Shown here piece by piece: positions 11,709 to 39,705 of a DNA stretch of 40,499 bases (its first letter is position 1; each line of letters opens with the position of its first letter). The stretch is from a virus. Lineage: Duplodnaviria; Heunggongvirae; Uroviricota; Caudoviricetes. The notes under the pieces were generated by a model. That model did not search any database, was not told where the DNA came from, and saw only the letters and a program-made list of their open reading frames with translations. The DNA lies in IMG/VR virus record IMGVR_UViG_2667527965_000002; one strand, given 5' to 3'. The position numbers and the translations under genes are program-made.

Positions 11709-12434
11709 ATGAATCAGATGAACATCACCGTAATGTGCCAGGCACACCATACAGCAGCTGTTGGGCAGCAGATAACCATGTCCAGCCGTGAGATTGCAAA
11801 ACTGGTCGATTCCCGGCACAGCAATGTCTGCGTAACGATAGAGCGCCTCATGAATTCCGGTGTGATTGAAGGGTATGCTGCATTGCAGTACACCCATCCC
11901 CAGAACGGACAGACCTATCATCACTACGAAGTGAATAAGCGTGATAGCTATGTGATCGTTGCCCAGTTGTCACCAGAGTTCACGGCCCGACTTGTTGACC
12001 GTTGGCAGGAACTGGAGAGCAGCGGTGGAATGATTGTTCCACGGTCACTTCCTGAAGCTTTGCGCCTTGCTGCTGATCTGGCAGAACAGAAACAGCGCCT
12101 GAGTGAAGAACTGGCAGTAGCGGCACCGAAGGCCGAGTTCGTTGATCGGTATGTGACGGCTACTGGTTCAATGACTTTCCGACAGGTGGCCAAGCTGCTT
12201 AACGCCAAAGAGCCAGAGTTTGCGATGTTCCTGATTGAGAACGGCATCATGTACCGGCTTAACCGTGTTCTTACGCCAAAGAGCAAGCATATCGAAGCAG
12301 GGCGCTTCGAGGTGAAGACGGGCACGACAAACCAGACAAATTACGCGTTCAATCAGTCCCGCTTCACCGCCAAGGGTGTTCGTTGGATTGGTGGTCTGTG
12401 GGCAGAGCATATTGCTAAGGGGCAGGTAGCGTGA
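11709..12434 (+). CDS. Rha-family regulatory protein with KilA-C-like antirepressor domain
   Basis: N-terminal MSSREIAKLVDSRHSNV (Rha-like) and C-terminal FRQVAKLLN ... region; GGAG SD. Confidence 0.7.
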   Translation: MNQMNITVMCQAHHTAAVGQQITMSSREIAKLVDSRHSNVCVTIERLMNSGVIEGYAALQYTHPQNGQTYHHYEVNKRDSYVIVAQLSPEFTARLVDRWQELESSGGMIVPRSLPEALRLAADLAEQKQRLSEELAVAAPKAEFVDRYVTATGSMTFRQVAKLLNAKEPEFAMFLIENGIMYRLNRVLTPKSKHIEAGRFEVKTGTTNQTNYAFNQSRFTAKGVRWIGGLWAEHIAKGQVA

Positions 12435-13420
12435 GGGCATTACTGACACCTGAAGTGGCACCGATGACCGGGGTAGTGTTATTTCGCCCAGGCAGTGAAC
12501 TGATGCATCTGTTCAGACGTGGGCGTGTTCTTATCGAGCCACAGGCAGAGTCAATGGCTGAGTTACCGTCTGGTCTGCTGCCTGAGACAACTCAGGAGCT
12601 TCAGAATGATCCGTTAATGCGTGATGTCTTCGAAAATCAGAAGGTCATACATCGTGCAGGTGGACTCAATTCACTGGATGCTTGGCTCGAAAGAAAACTG
12701 GAATGTCAGTACCCACACAGCGAGTGGCACGATCGCAACTACACCATAACCCGGCATGCACCTGGCTCAATCCGCACGTGCTGGGGCTGTGACTTAAAAA
12801 TTCGTGATCAGTTCACTGAAGGTCTGGCGGGTATAGCCCGTGAAAACCTGGTATCCTGGCTACTGAAGGTTGTAAACGGCCAATTAGGTTTCAGTGAGGA
12901 CCACATTCTTACACTGCCGGAGTTTTGCTGGTGGATGGTCAGGAGCGACCTGGCTGATGAGATACCTGAAGCCGTAGCACATAAAGCTCTTCGTCTGAAG
13001 AAAGAGTCCCACCAGTCGGTAACACGTGAAAGCGATATTGTTCCGGCATTACCCGCCAAACAACTGGTACAGGAGAAAGCGAAAAAGATAGTGGCAATGA
13101 AGGTTGACCCAGAGACGCCGGAATCCTTCATGCTTAAACCCAAGCGTCGCCGCTGGGTGAATGAGAAATACACGAGATGGGTTAAGGCCCAGCCGTGCGT
13201 CTGCTGTAACAAGCAAGCTGACGACCCCCACCACCTGATTGGCCACGGGCAGGGTGGAATGGGTACAAAGGCACACGACCTGTTTGTGATACCTCTGTGC
13301 AGAGAGCATCACGACGAGTTGCATGCTGATCCTGTGGCATTTGAAGCGAAATACGGTGACCAACTGGTCTTGGTGTTTCGGTTTATAGATCGTGCGCTGG
13401 CAATCGGCGTACTGGCGTAA
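12431..13420 (+). CDS. DUF968-like phage protein with C-terminal HNH-like zinc motif
   Basis: 329 aa; C-terminal CVCC ... HHLIGHGQGGMGTKAHD ... IPLCREHHDELH motif. Confidence 0.6.
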   Translation: MRALLTPEVAPMTGVVLFRPGSELMHLFRRGRVLIEPQAESMAELPSGLLPETTQELQNDPLMRDVFENQKVIHRAGGLNSLDAWLERKLECQYPHSEWHDRNYTITRHAPGSIRTCWGCDLKIRDQFTEGLAGIARENLVSWLLKVVNGQLGFSEDHILTLPEFCWWMVRSDLADEIPEAVAHKALRLKKESHQSVTRESDIVPALPAKQLVQEKAKKIVAMKVDPETPESFMLKPKRRRWVNEKYTRWVKAQPCVCCNKQADDPHHLIGHGQGGMGTKAHDLFVIPLCREHHDELHADPVAFEAKYGDQLVLVFRFIDRALAIGVLA

Positions 13421-13434
13421 GTGGAGAACGCTAA

Positions 13435-14013
13435 ATGATTAATCCTTCTGAAGTTGGTAAATCTGGTGAAATGGTTCGTCTTCGTACTCTGGAAAGCATC
13501 TGGATACAGGGTAAGTTGCGCATGTGGGGCCGCTGGTCTTATATCGGCGGTGGTAGTGGCGGGAATATGTTTAACCAGCTACTGGCATCAGGAAAAATCA
13601 CCAAGACAGCTATCAATGATGCTCTGCGCAGAATGAAGAAATCAGGAATCACCAAGCCTGAACTTGAAGCGTACCTTCGTGAAATCCTCAACAGCAAAAA
13701 TAAAAGCGGCCTGGCGTTCTGTTCAGACGAAGAAGGGTTGTTAGTGGACGGTGTCATTGCTTCTGTACTGATGAATGATGACTACCGATCTCTCTATAGC
13801 GTGATTGTCGACCGCCATCGCCTACGCAAGAGCAAGCTGCAAATGGCCAATGAACTGCAGGCTAAACATCCTGACTGGCCGCTGATCACCTGTCGTCGAC
13901 GCATTGACACTTGGCTAAGTCTTGCCGAATCGATCCTGTACGCTCCAGTTTGTGACGCATTCGGCACAAATAGCGACAGATTTAAGTTGCAGAGTGAGCA
14001 AGAAAGTGCTTAA
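13435..14013 (+). CDS. Putative late-gene antiterminator (Q-like)
   Basis: Located immediately upstream of a promoter-like sequence, short terminated leader and lysis cassette; WGRW motif resembles QuuD-type antiterminators. Confidence 0.5.
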   Translation: MINPSEVGKSGEMVRLRTLESIWIQGKLRMWGRWSYIGGGSGGNMFNQLLASGKITKTAINDALRRMKKSGITKPELEAYLREILNSKNKSGLAFCSDEEGLLVDGVIASVLMNDDYRSLYSVIVDRHRLRKSKLQMANELQAKHPDWPLITCRRRIDTWLSLAESILYAPVCDAFGTNSDRFKLQSEQESA

Positions 14014-14015
14014 AT
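13987..14015 (+). promoter_or_regulatory. Candidate late promoter (pR'-like) overlapping 3' end of Q-like gene
   Basis: -35 TTGCAG (13987-13992), 17-nt spacer, -10 TTAAAT (14010-14015); terminator about 50 nt downstream. Confidence 0.35.
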
Positions 14016-14063
14016 TATGGTAGGCTCGGGACGTTAAAGCGAACTGAGCAACACAACATTAAG

Positions 14064-14090
14064 AGCCCGCCATTGAGCGGGTTTTTTTGT
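14064..14090 (+). terminator. Rho-independent terminator (tR'-like)
   Basis: Stem AGCCCGC/GCGGGTT with 6-nt loop followed by T7 run. Confidence 0.65.
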
Positions 14091-14119
14091 TATGATTCCT
14101 CCGAAACTCAGGAGGCTTC

Positions 14120-14716
14120 ATGACTTGGCAAAACGTACCGTACGCTTTCGAAAAAACTACTGGCGAGTTGACCTTGGTAATAGAAAAATTACCGCCAATT
14201 GAAATCAGTTCTTCCTTTCCTTTTGAAACACTCATTACTGCTCTTGCAGGCGTTATTGCCGCAGGAATAACTGGTTGGGTTGCATACAGGGCAATCAAAG
14301 AAAATTTTGCCTTAGCCACATTACAGGCTCACTTGAATACTAATAAAGAATTGGCGCAACAAATACGTTTTGCTGGTGCTGAGCACGTGACAGACGTAAT
14401 TATGTTGGCCAGCACATTTGAGCAATGGCATCTGGTCGGAAATAAGAATATGGATATATTGGCTAAGGGTGTCTTCCCTGAAGAGATTCAAGTTCCAATA
14501 AAGGCCGCTGAAATAAGTAAAAATAAATTACTTCTATTAATAAGGCCTGATGAGGAAGGTTGCAAGTTGATAACCCTGACGGCAGATCTTCAAAAAGCGC
14601 TAAAAGTATGTTTTAAAAAAGGGTATTTTACTCCGGAAGAAAAAAAGTCATTTATTGATGCACAAAACGCCTTTATTTTTGGGTGTCATGAGTATATCAA
14701 TCAAAGTTTATCTTAA
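14120..14716 (+). CDS. AT-rich moron: hypothetical single-pass membrane protein
   Basis: 198 aa with one hydrophobic helix (residues about 33-56); strong SD AGGAGG; flanked by intrinsic terminators; lower GC than surrounding genes. Confidence 0.6.
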   Translation: MTWQNVPYAFEKTTGELTLVIEKLPPIEISSSFPFETLITALAGVIAAGITGWVAYRAIKENFALATLQAHLNTNKELAQQIRFAGAEHVTDVIMLASTFEQWHLVGNKNMDILAKGVFPEEIQVPIKAAEISKNKLLLLIRPDEEGCKLITLTADLQKALKVCFKKGYFTPEEKKSFIDAQNAFIFGCHEYINQSLS

Positions 14717-14733
14717 AAAAACCATACCTTACC

Positions 14734-14760
14734 AAGGCCGCCTTAATGCGGCCTTTTTTG
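14734..14760 (+). terminator. Rho-independent terminator
   Basis: Stem GGCCGC/GCGGCC with 6-nt loop followed by TTTTTT. Confidence 0.65.
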
Positions 14761-14805
14761 TTTCCCCTCGTTCTGAGAGGACTCACAGCAATAAGAGGGG
14801 GCTTA

Positions 14806-15201
14806 ATGTCCGATCCTGTTTCTGGCACTACGGTTGCGGCTGGTGGCCTGATGGGAGCCAGCGTATTTGGTCTTGCAACCGGTATTGACTATGGCGTGGT
14901 ATTTGGCGCATTCGCTGGTGCAGTATTTTATGTAGCGACAGCGGCAAATATCACACGAGTACGATTGATTGCTTACTTCATGACGTCCTTCATTGTTGGC
15001 GTTCTTGCCGCTGGCCTGGTTGGTTCTAAGCTGTCACAGGCTACCGGGTACAGTGACAGGCCATTAGACGCACTTGGTGCTGTTGTAGTGGCGGCGATGA
15101 CAATCAAAGTGCTCACATTTTTCAACAGTCAGGATTTGGGAAGCCTGTTCAGTATTCTTTCGCGATTCCGTGGAGGAGGGGCCAGCAATGGTAACAAGTG
15201 A
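14806..15201 (+). CDS. Putative holin-like membrane protein
   Basis: About 131 aa with three hydrophobic segments directly upstream of the endolysin; ATG 14806 with AGAGGGGG SD. Confidence 0.45.
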   Translation: MSDPVSGTTVAAGGLMGASVFGLATGIDYGVVFGAFAGAVFYVATAANITRVRLIAYFMTSFIVGVLAAGLVGSKLSQATGYSDRPLDALGAVVVAAMTIKVLTFFNSQDLGSLFSILSRFRGGGASNGNK

Positions 15202-15469
15202 TCTGTCAGCGATGGTGAATGCAGGTATTTGTGCGGTCATCGTCCTTGTCCTGATGTTCTACCAGCGTGAAGGGGCAAGACATCGCCCCGCTATATCATT
15301 GCTGGCTTACTTCGTTGTGCTGGTTTATGCCAGCGTTCCATTCCGATATTTGTTTGGCCTCTACCAGGAGTCACACTGGATGGTGGTCATCGTAAACCTT
15401 CTTATTTGCGCTGCCGTCTTATGGGCTCGTGGGAACGTGGCGCGTCTCGTTGATACGCTGAGGCATTAA
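15188..15469 (+). CDS. Putative holin / antiholin membrane protein
   Basis: 94 aa with hydrophobic helices; GGAGGAGGGG SD; stop overlaps endolysin start (TAATG). Confidence 0.45.
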   Translation: MVTSDLSAMVNAGICAVIVLVLMFYQREGARHRPAISLLAYFVVLVYASVPFRYLFGLYQESHWMVVIVNLLICAAVLWARGNVARLVDTLRH

Positions 15470-16086
15470 TGAACCAATCACAATTTCAACAGGCGGCTGG
15501 TGTAAGCGCCGGGTTAGCTTCGCGCTGGTTTCCGCACATTGATGCAGCGATGAAAGAGTTCGGCATTATTAAGCCTGAAGACCAGGCAATGTTTATTGCT
15601 CAGTCAGGACATGAATCAGCGGGATTCTCCGCGCTGGTGGAGAGCTTCAACTACACCCCAGCCGCTCTGCTGACCACCTTTGGACGCCGTATTACGAACT
15701 ATCAGGCATATATGCTTGGGCGTGACAAAGAAAAAGGGCAGGTAGCCAATCAGCCAGCCATTGCAAATCTGGTGTACAGCAATCGCCTCGGTAACAAAGC
15801 ATCAGGTGATGGGTGGAAATATCGTGGGCGTGGCCTGATTCAGATTACCGGTCTTGATAATTACCGCCGCTGCGGAACGGGATTAAAACTGGATTTAGTC
15901 AGTAATCCTGAGTTGCTGGAAAAGGATATCAACGCAGCACGGTCAGCTGCATGGTTCTACGCCACCAGCGGATGCCTGAGCTACTCCGGCGATCTTGTTC
16001 GCATCACTCAGATCATCAATGGTGGGCAGAACGGCATTAACGACCGCAGTGAACGTTACGCCAAAGCTAAAGCCGCACTGGTATGA
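15469..16086 (+). CDS. Endolysin, glycoside hydrolase family 19 (chitinase-like lysozyme)
   Basis: 205 aa with GH19-like catalytic region (QSGHESAGFS ... GRGLIQITG ...); follows holin-like genes. Confidence 0.85.
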   Translation: MNQSQFQQAAGVSAGLASRWFPHIDAAMKEFGIIKPEDQAMFIAQSGHESAGFSALVESFNYTPAALLTTFGRRITNYQAYMLGRDKEKGQVANQPAIANLVYSNRLGNKASGDGWKYRGRGLIQITGLDNYRRCGTGLKLDLVSNPELLEKDINAARSAAWFYATSGCLSYSGDLVRITQIINGGQNGINDRSERYAKAKAALV

Positions 16087-16093
16087 GGTCGCT

Positions 16094-16363
16094 ATGGGAC
16101 TTGAAATGATTATCGGCCTGGCTGTTGCTGTACTGGCTGCAATTGCAGGTGTTTTTGGTCTGGGTAAATCACGCGGTACAAGTATCGCCGAAACAAAAGC
16201 GGACCAGCAACGCACTGAAGAACGTACAGCAGCTACTGAAGCAGTTGCAGAACGCCGGGTAGAGACAACAAAAGGAGCCAGGGATGTACAGCAAACTGTT
16301 AGTCATCTTCCTGATGACGATGTTGACCGCGAGTTGCGCGAAAAATTTACCCGCAAAACCTGA
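16094..16363 (+). CDS. i-spanin (Rz-like) with N-terminal transmembrane segment
   Basis: ATG 16094 with GAGG SD overlapping endolysin end; N-terminal hydrophobic helix then charged coiled region. Confidence 0.5.
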   Translation: MGLEMIIGLAVAVLAAIAGVFGLGKSRGTSIAETKADQQRTEERTAATEAVAERRVETTKGARDVQQTVSHLPDDDVDRELREKFTRKT

Positions 16364-16526
16364 AGTAACGGACACGGCCTGTGACTGGGTGAGCATCATC
16401 TACCTCACTGAGCACGATATTGCCGTGCTGGATAAACAGACGAAGCGGGACATATTGGCGCACAACAAATCAGTGCAGGCTAACTGCATGAAGGAGCCAG
16501 GTCGTGAACGTAGAGAACCTAAGTGA
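16284..16526 (+). CDS. o-spanin (Rz1-like) lipoprotein, out-of-frame overlap with i-spanin
   Basis: Signal peptide ending LTASC lipobox-like; embedded/overlapping arrangement typical of spanin pairs. Confidence 0.45.
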   Translation: MYSKLLVIFLMTMLTASCAKNLPAKPEVTDTACDWVSIIYLTEHDIAVLDKQTKRDILAHNKSVQANCMKEPGRERREPK

Positions 16527-16734
16527 CGCGCATTACATCTATAACGAGATGAAAGAGCTACAGCGACAGAAAGGCATACTGGAAAGCGGTGCCGGACTTG
16601 GGGTGACAATCCAGTCGACCTATCAGGATAATGCCTTTCTTGATGCCATACGCCCGCATGCAGTGGATGAACTTGATCGGCGTATAGAGGAGAAAAAAGA
16701 TGTACTGGTTAATTTGGGCCTCTCCTTCTCTTAA
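16504..16734 (+). CDS. Hypothetical small protein
   Basis: GTG start with AGGAG SD; 76 aa. Confidence 0.3.
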   Translation: MNVENLSDAHYIYNEMKELQRQKGILESGAGLGVTIQSTYQDNAFLDAIRPHAVDELDRRIEEKKDVLVNLGLSFS

Positions 16735-16779
16735 ACTATCATGCATTACAGCAGGCACGTATCAGGTGCCTGCCATCAG

Positions 16780-17220
16780 TTAATAGGATATTTTATCGGA
16801 AGACTTGAGCGCTTTTAATGTAGCTTCAAGTATATCGAGAAATAGATCAACATCTTCATAATCATAAGATGGATTAGGTTTGTACTCCCCAATGTAAACC
16901 AACCCATTTTTACCTAAAAAGAAGCTAATTACTTCCTTGTTATTTTCATCAGTTGAGTCAGTTGCAACGAACTTCAAAAGAGGGGCTTCATTGATGACTA
17001 CCAGTTTCTCATTGAAAACGAGTTCTAACCCATATGTTGAAAGTTCTAGGGTTAGTCTGTTTTCTGCATCTTGATTGAAAATCAAGGTGTTAGAAGTTAA
17101 AGAACTTTCTTTGCATGAGTCAATAACGTTTTTCTTAAGTTTGATTGCTTTTTCATCTAAAGCCTTTTTGTGTTCTGCACACTTAATAACCTTACGGACG
17201 TCTAAATAGTCGATGCTCAT
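16780..17220 (-). CDS. AT-rich antisense moron: hypothetical soluble protein
   Basis: 146 aa from ATG 17220 with AAGAGG SD; low GC; opposite to flanking late genes; hairpin GCAGGCAC/GTGCCTGC at 16750-16772 downstream. Confidence 0.55.
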   Translation of the reverse strand: MSIDYLDVRKVIKCAEHKKALDEKAIKLKKNVIDSCKESSLTSNTLIFNQDAENRLTLELSTYGLELVFNEKLVVINEAPLLKFVATDSTDENNKEVISFFLGKNGLVYIGEYKPNPSYDYEDVDLFLDILEATLKALKSSDKISY

Positions 17221-17311
17221 AATTAAACCTCTTATTGATGAGTTAATAAACATTGAGCCATTAAGGCCAATATCAATACTAAAGAATGAGAAAGTTTAAG
17301 TTATTAGAGTT

Positions 17312-17599
17312 ATGTCTCAATTTGATGCCACTTCGAACACAAAAATGAACCTAACAAGAGGTCATATGCGTCTAACTGTATTAGATGACGATCCCGGCAG
17401 GAAGATTAATCTCGGTGTAGAGCGATACGCTGTTTTTCTCGATGGTATAGAGGTTAAGCATGTCTTCACTGCTGACGATGAGAAGGGCGAAGTAATCGCA
17501 GCCGTTCCTGATGAGCGTGGTTATATGACGACAGAGAACGGTGAAGTGAAGCGGCATACGCTTCACGGCTCTGTGAGGATTGAACCATGCCAGCGTTAA
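17312..17599 (+). CDS. Hypothetical phage protein
   Basis: 95 aa ORF upstream of the HNH endonuclease gene. Confidence 0.45.
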   Translation: MSQFDATSNTKMNLTRGHMRLTVLDDDPGRKINLGVERYAVFLDGIEVKHVFTADDEKGEVIAAVPDERGYMTTENGEVKRHTLHGSVRIEPCQR

Positions 17600-17937
17600 T
17601 CCCTCGCGCATGTCGCAAGAGAGGTTGTCCCGGTACGACTACGGACCGTTCAGGCTACTGTGAGCAGCATCGAAATGAGGGCTGGCAACAGCACCAGCAG
17701 GGTAAGAGCCGCCATCAGCGTGGCTACGGCAGTAAGTGGGATATCAAGCGCGCGCGCATCCTGAAGCGTGATAATCATCTGTGTCAGAACTGCCTGCGTA
17801 GTGGACGTGCTGTCGCGGCCACAACCGTTGACCATATCAAGGCTAAGGCACATGGGGGTACCGATGATGATTCGAACCTCGAAAGCCTGTGCTGGCCCTG
17901 CCACCGCTCGAAAACAGGTCGCGAGCGCTTTAAATGA
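17587..17937 (+). CDS. HNH endonuclease (packaging-associated, HK97 gp74-like position)
   Basis: Cys pairs CxxC ... CxxC and HxxxxH ... DH HNH motif (VDHIKAKAHGGTDDDSNLESLCWPCH); adjacent to terminase small subunit. Confidence 0.85.
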   Translation: MPALIPRACRKRGCPGTTTDRSGYCEQHRNEGWQQHQQGKSRHQRGYGSKWDIKRARILKRDNHLCQNCLRSGRAVAATTVDHIKAKAHGGTDDDSNLESLCWPCHRSKTGRERFK

Positions 17938-18093: not shown

Positions 18094-18567
18094 ATGTCAG
18101 GACCGCCGAAAACCCCTACCCATCTGCGTTTGGTGAGGGGTAACCCATCAAAACGACCGATCAACAATAACGAGCCGAAACCACCTAAAGGGGTCCCCCC
18201 AGTTCCCAAGCATTTCGACAAGCAGGGGAAGTACTGGTTTAAGCGGATGGCTGAAGAGTTGGACGCCATCGGCGTGATCTCCCAGCTTGACGGGCGAGCC
18301 CTTGAACTGCTTGTGGAAGCGTATACCGAATACAGACATCACTGCGACACGCTGGAGATTGAGGGGTATACGTACCGAACTGAAACGCAGACTGGTGACG
18401 TCATGATAAAGGCACATCCGGCAGCAATTATGAAAGCCGACGCCTGGAAAAGGCTGCGAGCCATGCTTGGTGAGTTCGGAATGACGCCTGCCAGTCGATC
18501 GAAAGTAAGTACAAAAACTCCGGGCGAAGTTGATCTTATTGCTGAATTTATGAAAGCGAGGGACTAA
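18094..18567 (+). CDS. Terminase small subunit (P27/HK97-like family)
   Basis: 157 aa; AGGAG SD; immediately precedes large terminase. Confidence 0.85.
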   Translation: MSGPPKTPTHLRLVRGNPSKRPINNNEPKPPKGVPPVPKHFDKQGKYWFKRMAEELDAIGVISQLDGRALELLVEAYTEYRHHCDTLEIEGYTYRTETQTGDVMIKAHPAAIMKADAWKRLRAMLGEFGMTPASRSKVSTKTPGEVDLIAEFMKARD

Positions 18568-38647: not shown

Positions 38648-38715
38648 TGCGCGAATAATCCCTGTTCTGGTGATTGATAGTTTTAACCAGTATTGATCTG
38701 CCTTCAAATTAAAAC

Positions 38716-38735
38716 TACTGTATATATATACAGTA
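38716..38735. promoter_or_regulatory. Consensus LexA (SOS) box
   Basis: TACTGTATATATATACAGTA, perfect CTGT-N8-ACAG palindrome, 20 bp upstream of the umuD-like start. Confidence 0.8.
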
Positions 38736-38754
38736 AGTTACAAAGGAGGTAATT

Positions 38755-39083
38755 ATGCAACTACAACGCCTTATTTTTCCGGACGTTCCGGTATATATCC
38801 CTGTTTATGGGGATCTCATTTCGGCAGGCTTTCCCAGTCCTGCCGCTGACTATATCGAGAGCGGCATCGATCTGTGTCGCATCTTATTCTCCACCCCTCA
38901 TCGACATATACACTTCGCGTCGCCAGAGATTCAATGATCAATGCCGGCATCCTCGATGGTTCATACCTTCTCATTGATTTCAGCCTCCATCCCGAAGACG
39001 GTGATATTGTCGTCAGTAACATCGTGGGCGGGTCTGGTTTCTACAAAGATTCCCGCACAACGGGCGGGAATCGGGTAAGCTGA
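38755..39083 (+). pseudogene. umuD-like S24 peptidase gene, frameshifted and 3'-truncated
   Basis: Frame 1 encodes ...GFPSPAADYIESGIDL..., frame 0 continues ...HPSSTYTLRVARDSMINAGILDG...; frames switch around 38885-38892; ORF ends well before the expected C-terminus. Confidence 0.6.
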
Positions 39084-39102
39084 ACGGCATGAAATTGCCG
39101 GG

Positions 39103-39705
39103 CTAGTTTAAAAATGGATAAACTTTAAAAGAAGCCCATAAATCATTGTTAAGTGCCAACAAACCTACGGAGATATAGGATAATATCGCAAGTGCTCCTG
39201 TAAAATAAAGTATGGATTTCTTTATTTTTTTCCAAAGAATTAGGGCTGGAATTGAAGTTACGGCAATCACACCCATCTGATAACAAAATTGTCTGGCAAT
39301 GTCACCATCACTCCAAGGGTATATAAAAACATAAGGGGCGAAAAGTATTAAATGGACAAGTCTAAGTATAACCCCTATACATGCCCCAGGTATTGCAAAA
39401 AAGCCCCCCGCGCTTTGTAATAATAAGCTTGCCCTCATGCCGGGTATGAGAATAAAAAAATTAAGAATAGCCCAGAATATTAATATTATCGTGGCATAGC
39501 CAAAAAGAGTGCTTAACCCAGATTGACCGCCAACTGCTGTAAACTGTGGCGTCTGGTAAGACTGGCTCGGCTGACTAACTGATTTGCTGGCATCACATGC
39601 ACTTTGCCAGCTCTCTGCATTGTCTGCCTGCCATTTATGATCATACTGTGTAAAAGGCCTGTCACTGGTAACATACTTGCCTTCATCATCTTGCCTAACA
39701 CCCAT
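39103..39705 (-). CDS. AT-rich hypothetical polytopic membrane protein
   Basis: 200 aa; about 70-aa polar N-terminal region then about four hydrophobic helices; low GC. Confidence 0.55.
   Translation of the reverse strand: MGVRQDDEGKYVTSDRPFTQYDHKWQADNAESWQSACDASKSVSQPSQSYQTPQFTAVGGQSGLSTLFGYATIILIFWAILNFFILIPGMRASLLLQSAGGFFAIPGACIGVILRLVHLILFAPYVFIYPWSDGDIARQFCYQMGVIAVTSIPALILWKKIKKSILYFTGALAILSYISVGLLALNNDLWASFKVYPFLN

Follow-up and report, generated by a model that had tools for sequence, protein, structure and literature searches.

Introduction

The stretch between the late antiterminator gene Q and the lysis genes of lambdoid prophages is the site at which Shiga toxin and other conversion genes are carried, and a gene found there raises the questions of when it is expressed and what it offers its carrier. 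These questions are taken up here for one cargo gene in a 40,499-nucleotide (nt) stretch of tailed-phage DNA (Caudoviricetes; IMG/VR record IMGVR_UViG_2667527965_000002), termed the window, which is an Escherichia coli prophage; over the region of the cargo gene it shares 99.9% identity with strains ARL09/232 and ET5. A preliminary description of this DNA had drawn attention to a gene for a 198-amino-acid (aa) protein with a single membrane helix and a strong Shine-Dalgarno (SD) site in the Q-to-lysis, or stx-equivalent, position and had expected it to be expressed strongly from the late promoter on induction. The open reading frame (ORF) at 14120-14716, its SD site, its one membrane helix and its location, with a DUF1133/Q-like gene upstream and holin genes downstream, are all borne out by the present analysis; the expectation about its expression fared less well.

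As an object, the cassette is a moron at a site well known for carrying cargo, and the protein family that it encodes is uncharacterized. The explanation considered best, that of an autonomous cassette that is expressed in the lysogen, silenced on late RNA and protective of the lysogen, is tentative as a whole, with a probability placed somewhat below even, and its parts differ in strength.

A cargo cassette between tandem terminators

The cassette and its immediate boundaries comprise the following features.

13435-14013, plus strand: Q-like late antiterminator gene, left neighbour (DUF1133, distantly like Q of phage 82)
14061-14091, plus strand: terminator 1, tR'-like, the first after the late promoter PR' and the left edge of the slot; hairpin at 14061-14086 followed by a T-run (from scan and fold)
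14110-14115, plus strand: SD site AGGAGG, 4 nt ahead of the cargo-gene ATG (14120-14122)
14120-14716, plus strand: cargo gene, 198 aa, ATG start and TAA stop
14734-14761, plus strand: terminator 2, right edge of the slot; hairpin at 14734-14755 followed by a T-run (from scan; fold of -14.3 kcal/mol, z = -4.2)
14806-15201, plus strand: first holin-family gene, right neighbour and start of the lysis cassette (Phage_holin_8 in Pfam, 2.2e-39; phrog_198, holin)

The DNA between the terminators is very probably a cargo cassette ("moron") in the Q-to-lysis slot of an E. coli lambdoid prophage, extending over some 650 bp (about 14086-14734). It is missing from a relative in which the flanks are adjacent, a terminator lies directly 3' of its gene, and its base composition is atypical. 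The low guanine-cytosine (GC) content relative to the neighbours had been pointed out before and is confirmed: the cargo ORF has a GC content of 0.384 (0.33 at third codon positions), as against 0.48-0.51 in the Q, holin, and endolysin genes and 0.498 in the whole window, and the value dips to 0.35-0.41 along the gene with about 0.50 on either side. The cassette also occupies the position typical of stx, 3' of the candidate PR' and of tR', 5' of the lysis genes and on the late strand. The left neighbour is recognized by Pfam DUF1133 (1.7e-92), by phrog_753, "anti-termination protein Q-like" (5.5e-68), and weakly by Phage_antitermQ (4.2e-08), while Phage_holin_8 and Phage_holin_3_7 genes, a GH19 endolysin gene, and spanin-like ORFs are found 3' of the cargo gene.

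The extent of the insert is given by a cargo-free relative with the same Q and holins, E. coli 219 (NZ_CP020514; locus L007), in which two tandem terminators stand 9 nt apart (1655-1711). When this site is aligned with the window, homology is found across terminator 1 up to about 14085 and returns at terminator 2 at about 14735, so that the cargo-specific DNA amounts to about 650 bp. Since both terminators are present at the empty site, they are the edges of a pre-existing backbone pocket; the preliminary description was thus right that the gene is flanked by terminators, but these were not brought in by the insert. The tandem terminators may serve as recombination joints and, in addition, as a double stop for PR' transcripts. 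In related phages, the cargo always lies between them.

Terminators 1 and 2 are the strongest in the scan, with stems of 8-10 bp followed by T6-T7, whereas the number of terminator-like hits in 12000-17000 is in itself no excess (5 versus 4.6 in shuffled sequences). Compared with shuffled sequence, the leader region folds at z = -7.5 and the terminator 2 region at z = -4.2. Both terminator hairpins recur in relatives with compensatory changes in their stems, and terminator 2 is kept after the cargo gene in nearly all loci, such changes included.

In one common backbone, the Q-to-lysis slot is thus a defined pocket between tandem terminators in which cargo, including known and candidate defence genes, is swapped. 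Comparison with relatives, which had been suggested as a check, shows the gene not only missing from L007 but replaced elsewhere: the same pocket holds a 111-aa ORF in L008, an SDH-type protease in L009, a TIR-TM protein in phage mEp390 (gene 047, PADLOC 1.6e-57; L010 1495-2313, minus strand), and the TerB-like "TciA" in Klebsiella phage 1. Alleles that are 18-27% identical to the window protein occupy this same backbone. Further cargo in the Q-to-holin slot of relatives includes PDC-M53A/B with a methyltransferase, HicAB, a methylase, and a non-specific endonuclease, of which three are placed as follows.

L054, 5992-7499: candidate defence pair PDC-M53A/B
L005, 6612-7274: HicAB toxin-antitoxin pair
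L081, 3790-4653: non-specific endonuclease

Where such extra cargo is present, it is usually located between the family gene and the holin gene. The defence-type cargo carried by relatives marks the slot as a hotspot for defence and accessory genes.

A promoter-like motif within a predicted inhibitory leader hairpin

Two overlapping features lie between the T-run of terminator 1 and the start of the gene.

14088-14096, plus strand: extended -10 promoter-like motif, TGTTATGAT, abutting the T-run of terminator 1; expected transcription start at about 14103
14089-14124, plus strand: leader hairpin, in which GUUAUGA..CCUCC (anti-SD at 14098-14102) pairs with GGAGG..UCAUGAC around an 8-nt loop

The leader hairpin (-18.4 kcal/mol, z = -4.2) covers both the SD and the AUG, whereas RNA beginning at 14103 has next to no structure (-1.4 kcal/mol). 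Among 13 leaders, 90% of the hairpin cells are paired versus 35-52% in slid controls, and three pairs are changed on both sides. The SD differs by lineage (GGAGG, GGGGG, AAGGUC, or GAAGG) and the upstream arm changes along with it, the anti-SD/SD duplexes being stronger within than across lineages to a degree that is reached in 0 of 5000 permutations. An RNA thermometer was considered for the leader and ruled out, as the hairpin is too stable (-18 kcal/mol). A search of 13900-14900 against Rfam returned only sub-threshold "Trp_leader" matches, located at both terminators, and no known RNA family is therefore represented.

The motif is found as TGnT[A/T]TnAT 23-30 nt ahead of the ATG in 25 of 30 distinct leaders, with the hexamers TATGAT (18), TATCAT (4), TATTAT (1), and TTTGAT (2). 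Almost all of its variation falls at hexamer position 4, the position that matters least in a -10 element. It is retained at 18-35% protein identity (about 20% and up), and also where its pairing partner near the AUG has changed. This positional conservation, together with the variation at hexamer position 4, matches the prediction of an extended -10 promoter. Taken by itself the motif is unremarkable, TGnTATGAT occurring twice in the 40-kb window where 1.4 occurrences are expected, and only its positional conservation therefore counts as evidence. A generic promoter scan made no call at TGTTATGAT because there is no -35 element. Overall, the control signals of the cassette are better conserved than the protein that it encodes.

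It is the order of these elements that bears on expression. The anti-SD lies between the -10 motif and the predicted +1, so that a transcript started by the TGTTATGAT promoter would lack it. The earlier expectation of strong expression from the late promoter is thereby made doubtful, as read-through RNA locks the SD and AUG in the conserved hairpin, while the conserved extended -10 element would start a shorter RNA without the inhibitory arm. On the strength of these leader features, transcript-specific translation of the cargo gene appears, by a modest preference, to be the correct interpretation.

Proposed mode of expression

The proposed sequence of events differs between the lysogen and the induced cell. 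In the lysogen, PR' transcripts would end at terminator 1, and a sigma-70 extended -10 promoter at TGTTATGAT (14088-14096) would initiate RNA at about 14103. This short RNA would be translated because it lacks the anti-SD arm and, as it would stop at terminator 2, the lysis genes would stay silent. After induction, Q-modified polymerase would pass both terminators, and in the resulting long late RNA the anti-SD arm would pair with the SD and AUG, so that the membrane protein would not be overproduced from a very strong transcript. If true, the device would have two parts, namely a promoter of its own that yields translatable RNA and a late read-through RNA that is translationally silent, and it would explain how a lysogen-only gene can be carried inside the strongest late transcription unit without cost to lytic growth.

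The rival that survives best holds that the gene is mainly transcribed from PR' under the control of Q as the first late gene, that the hairpin merely tempers translation, and that the product blocks late superinfection or DNA re-entry, or conditions the membrane, during the phage's own lytic cycle. The layout of the loci favours such a late-phase product, since the gene shares the strand of the late operon and is the first ORF past Q, PR', and tR', 87-150 nt beyond the Q gene (DUF1133, PF03589, or PF06323), in at least 11 sampled lineages. So does the occurrence of a family member in a cultured phage of K-12, LLS (PQ299149), directly past Q (L063 3001-3606, corresponding to 38668-39273 of the record); in the record it is divided between genes 49 and 50 and its start seems misplaced, the MWQ... 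N-terminus running from 38668. However, a hairpin of -18 kcal/mol on the SD and AUG should nearly abolish translation of the long RNA, the conserved TGnTATnAT motif would be left without a role, and a terminator directly 3' of the gene suits an independent transcription unit. The ORF is, moreover, intact in decayed prophage remnants of two kinds from which Q has been lost (L047/L048 and L051), an observation that argues against a late-phase product and would support Q-independent expression. Weighing both sides, a late-phase product is considered unlikely, and translation from a short lysogen RNA is retained as the preferred account.

One of the remnants deserves separate mention. In the chromosome of Enterobacter hormaechei (L048 3860-4000), beside a Peptidase_M3 gene, Q has been lost, but the cargo ORF persists intact together with a PR' region of lambda-like type; terminator 1 has a damaged stem at this site (CCTCGC-TATG-TCGG), which might permit Q-independent read-through.

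The protein family, its distribution and selection

The window protein is a full-length member of phrog_18859 (6.9e-91), a family annotated without function, which is also matched by 29 of 29 sampled family members. The earlier statement that the protein has no recognisable motifs is correct as regards Pfam, NCBIfam, and PADLOC, where nothing rose above noise, but not for PHROGs. When the 29 members were scanned singly, stray weak matches alone were obtained (in PADLOC, for 2 of 29). A word-indexed search gave 12 clusters at 60-99% identity, and a profile search over 1.84 billion cluster representatives gave 48 clusters (50% identity) of proteins of 190-240 aa. Relatives found by a second profile search are labelled only "hypothetical protein" and come from E. 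coli, Enterobacter, Klebsiella, Citrobacter, Proteus, and Pectobacterium, and cluster members are also present in Salmonella and Shigella. A scan of genome contigs for related loci yielded one locus. The window protein had no match by tblastn in 50,697 phage records, LLS being matched only by distant family members, and the family profile gave nothing below E = 0.07 against PDB sequences.

Conservation is located mostly in the N-terminal 100 residues, where the pattern MxW(Q/K)G(V/I)P(F/Y)...K(I/L)P...SFSWET is followed by the membrane helix; W3, P7, P25, and F33 are invariant, and Q69 and R83 are kept in at least 90% of members. The median ratio of nonsynonymous to synonymous substitution rates (dN/dS) is about 0.08, with synonymous sites saturated, and the cargo gene is under strong purifying selection. 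The GC content of family genes is 0.29-0.41 in every lineage examined. As it is low everywhere despite saturated synonymous divergence, this composition is maintained and is not the trace of a recent import; recent import from a low-GC donor was ruled out on this ground.

One variant, P0002 (224 aa), arises by the loss of one A from a homopolymer run.

14640-14646, plus strand: A7 run within the cargo ORF (from alignment plus translation from sequence)

In this variant, which is represented by 16 member sequences on 31 contigs, the last helix is replaced and terminator 2 is read through. Either a genuine pseudogene or phase variant or a sequencing error in the homopolymer may account for it.

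The gene keeps its place while its neighbours change. It accompanies four unrelated Q families (DUF1133, PF03589, PF06323, and PF06530), the last in the Proteus-type locus, where it lies one gene further from Q. Downstream, the holins vary between holin_8, holin_2_1, holin_3_1, and pinholin, and the endolysins between GH19, lysozyme, CHAP, and GH108. This variety of Q families and lysis cassettes is the evidence of independent acquisition that the preliminary description had called for. Members occur exclusively in the Q-to-lysis slot of Enterobacterales lambdoid prophages.

Protein architecture and possible role

The protein can be divided into three parts.

Residues 1-34: acidic N-tail
Residues about 35-57: transmembrane helix
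Residues 58-198: C-terminal four-helix bundle

There is a single hydrophobic helix at residues about 35-57 and no second one in the 198-aa protein. An AlphaFold2 model built with 12 close homologues was unusable, with a predicted local distance difference test score (pLDDT) of 47.6, whereas one built with 29 diverse sequences reached a pLDDT of 81, exceeding 90 in the C-terminal domain. In this model, residues 1-31 are unstructured, a long helix at 35-107 represents the membrane helix continuing into helix 1, and three more helices complete an up-down four-helix bundle. The protein is thus probably, as judged from the model, a membrane-anchored four-helix bundle. The structure prediction and Foldseek comparison that had been proposed for it were informative to the extent of this generic fold, but no match with E below 1e-3 was found in PDB or BFVD.

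Over 53 family members, the mean number of lysine and arginine residues is 1.2 in the 20 residues that precede the membrane helix and 3.7 in the 20 that follow, and acidic residues predominate over basic ones in the N-tail. By the positive-inside rule, this bias indicates a periplasmic N-tail and a cytoplasmic bundle, and the product is probably a bitopic inner-membrane protein of that orientation. The predicted cytoplasmic bundle is at odds with the best structural matches, which are periplasmic. It is proposed that the N-tail, membrane helix, and helix 1 form a constant part, and that the remaining bundle would be the fast-diverging part that bears specificity.

Our best guess as to role, offered with considerable reserve, is that the protein shields the lysogen from other phages, acting at the inner membrane through either superinfection exclusion or abortive infection. 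This guess is favoured because the slot is rich in defence genes, the cassette has the architecture of a moron, the gene is retained in prophage remnants, and a constant membrane module is combined with a hyperdivergent bundle. A bolder version, that the family is a widespread and unrecognized single-gene anti-phage system in which the constant membrane module is coupled to a hypervariable cytoplasmic bundle that senses or blocks phages, and which would spare the prophage's own lytic cycle by being translated only from the short lysogen RNA and not from the late mRNA, would go well beyond this and is rather improbable.

Several points weigh against the explanation preferred here. Because the motif and the 5' arm of the hairpin share sequence, pairing could account for part of the motif's conservation; the TTTGAT found in two lineages is a poor -10 element, and the motif is missing from 5 of the 30 leaders (those of the Proteus-type clade and L058). 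The covariation controls leave shared ancestry in, and shared ancestry inflates such tests. Both the identification of the motif as a promoter and the start site near 14103 are predictions. The case for an anti-phage role consists of location, architecture, and diversity, and no match to a known defence, exclusion, or lysis family was obtained with PADLOC, Pfam, NCBIfam, PDB sequences, Foldseek, or P22 SieA/SieB.

Protection of the lysogen against phages must also be set against a lysogenic-conversion function, in which the gene would help the host in some way that has nothing to do with phages, for instance in envelope stress tolerance, colonisation, or virulence. Moron architecture speaks for such a gene, as does its retention in Enterobacter prophage remnants, and the family is present in both clinical and commensal Enterobacterales. 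Against this, family searches of the cargo protein revealed no signature of secretion, of an adhesin, of a toxin, or of an enzyme, the restriction of the family to a single slot of lambdoid prophages is not what would favour a general host function, and its extreme allelic divergence is more typical of phage conflict. A conversion gene of this kind is therefore regarded as quite unlikely, and the anti-phage guess is preferred to it.

A third possibility is that the product assists lysis or sets its timing, in the manner of an antiholin or by otherwise modulating the membrane, and works with the adjacent holins. It is indeed a membrane protein whose gene usually lies 85-110 nt upstream of the holin gene. 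Nevertheless, it has no constant partner, being found with at least four unrelated holin types as well as with the four kinds of endolysin listed above, and other cargo intervenes between it and the holin gene in L005, L054, L081, and LLS. It is missing from the close relative L007, which has the same lysis genes, and is retained in remnants with a decayed lysis cassette. Homology to a lysis accessory protein had been named beforehand as evidence against a cargo gene, and the window protein has no similarity to the lysis families of Pfam or PHROGs. A lysis factor is decidedly unlikely on these grounds, and the cassette continues to be read as serving the lysogen. That the ORF is a chance one or a decaying passenger without function, as its lack of annotation anywhere and the frameshifted P0002 might suggest, is extremely improbable in view of the measured purifying selection (dN/dS), the length maintained over 48 clusters, and the four invariant residues.

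The late promoter region and flanking genes

Two further features precede terminator 1.

13987-14015, plus strand: candidate late promoter PR', with a -35-like TTGCAG (13987-13992), a 17-nt spacer, and TGc-TTAAAT (14007-14015)
14023-14049, plus strand: stem-loop in the short PR'-proximal transcript (from a fold of 14023-14125), near-identical in L007, L008, L056, and L059

A simple promoter scan made no call at the PR' candidate. The stretch from this candidate to 14060 is kept among phages with a DUF1133-type Q whatever their cargo (L007, L008, L056, and L059), and the annotated P22 record has the same layout, with tR' 30-58 nt past the PR' start. In loci with a lambda-type Q (L002 and L048), the sequence 5' of terminator 1 is read as a lambda-like PR' with its pause element.

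On the other side of the cassette, the lysis genes begin with two tandem holin-family genes, 14806-15201 (Phage_holin_8) and 15188-15469 (Phage_holin_3_7), which overlap by 14 nt. Past the endolysin gene lies an overlapping spanin-like pair (15995-16363 and 16284-16526), the second ORF of which has a lipobox-like LTASC. An HNH endonuclease-like ORF (17587-17937) is situated directly 5' of the terminase small subunit gene (18094-18567), both as judged from translations, and such HNH-terminase pairing is usual in cos-type phages.

A second low-GC island (16700-17300, 0.32-0.37) contains a 157-aa ORF on the minus strand (16780-17253), placed between the spanin-like genes and the HNH and terminase genes. 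It has no Pfam or PHROG match and no tblastn match among phage records, and a weak PADLOC match to PDC-M24A (E = 0.011) was the only one obtained. The Tai defence system of phi80 likewise sits upstream of the packaging module (PMC11364771).

Comparison with known systems

The fold of the cargo-protein model is similar to that of four-helix-bundle sensors (TorS, NarQ/NarX, QseE, Tar/Tsr, and McpN), at 4-13% identity. Unlike these, the cargo protein has no second membrane helix, output domain, or Pfam match, and its bundle is predicted to be cytoplasmic. In its general character it resembles the exclusion proteins SieA and SieB of P22, gp15 of HK97, and Imm of T4, which are likewise small inner-membrane proteins forming an autonomous unit in the prophage, and sieA and sieB of P22 have their own annotated promoters. 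The resemblance does not extend to sequence or location: the genomic position is different, hhalign gave a probability of 0.1-0.2% for SieA and SieB against the cargo protein, that is, no relation, and the exclusion families of Pfam (SieB and Imm) were not matched.

For the proposed control of translation, the closest parallel is provided by genes e, soc, 49, and I-TevI of T4, for which it is documented that long transcripts go untranslated, whereas a promoter located within the 5' arm gives rise to translatable RNA (PMC3014915). In T4 gene e, an upstream arm masks the SD and AUG of the read-through RNA, and the fold computed here for the cargo leader has the same arrangement. The timing is reversed, since in T4 it is a late promoter that produces the translatable RNA, whereas here a sigma-70 promoter active in the prophage state would do so; the start site and the effect on translation in the cargo leader are, for their part, deduced from sequence.

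With lambdoid morons in the sense of Hendrix and Juhala, and with stx cargo, the cassette shares its optional presence, its atypical composition, the terminator that follows it, and probably a promoter of its own. It differs from other morons in that its slot is bounded by two pre-existing tandem terminators. To our knowledge, neither a pocket between two tandem tR'-type terminators, nor a conserved promoter-inside-anti-SD-hairpin device, nor the fidelity of a family to this slot over four Q families has been described for lambdoid cargo. The stx genes lie in the Q-to-S region of Stx phages, and the cargo gene is positioned like them, 3' of PR'/tR' and 5' of the holin gene. Its product, unlike theirs, is no toxin or known conversion factor, and the two also part ways in their relation to the late transcript: stx relies on the Q-dependent RNA, whereas the leader of the cargo gene appears to be built to block translation from it.

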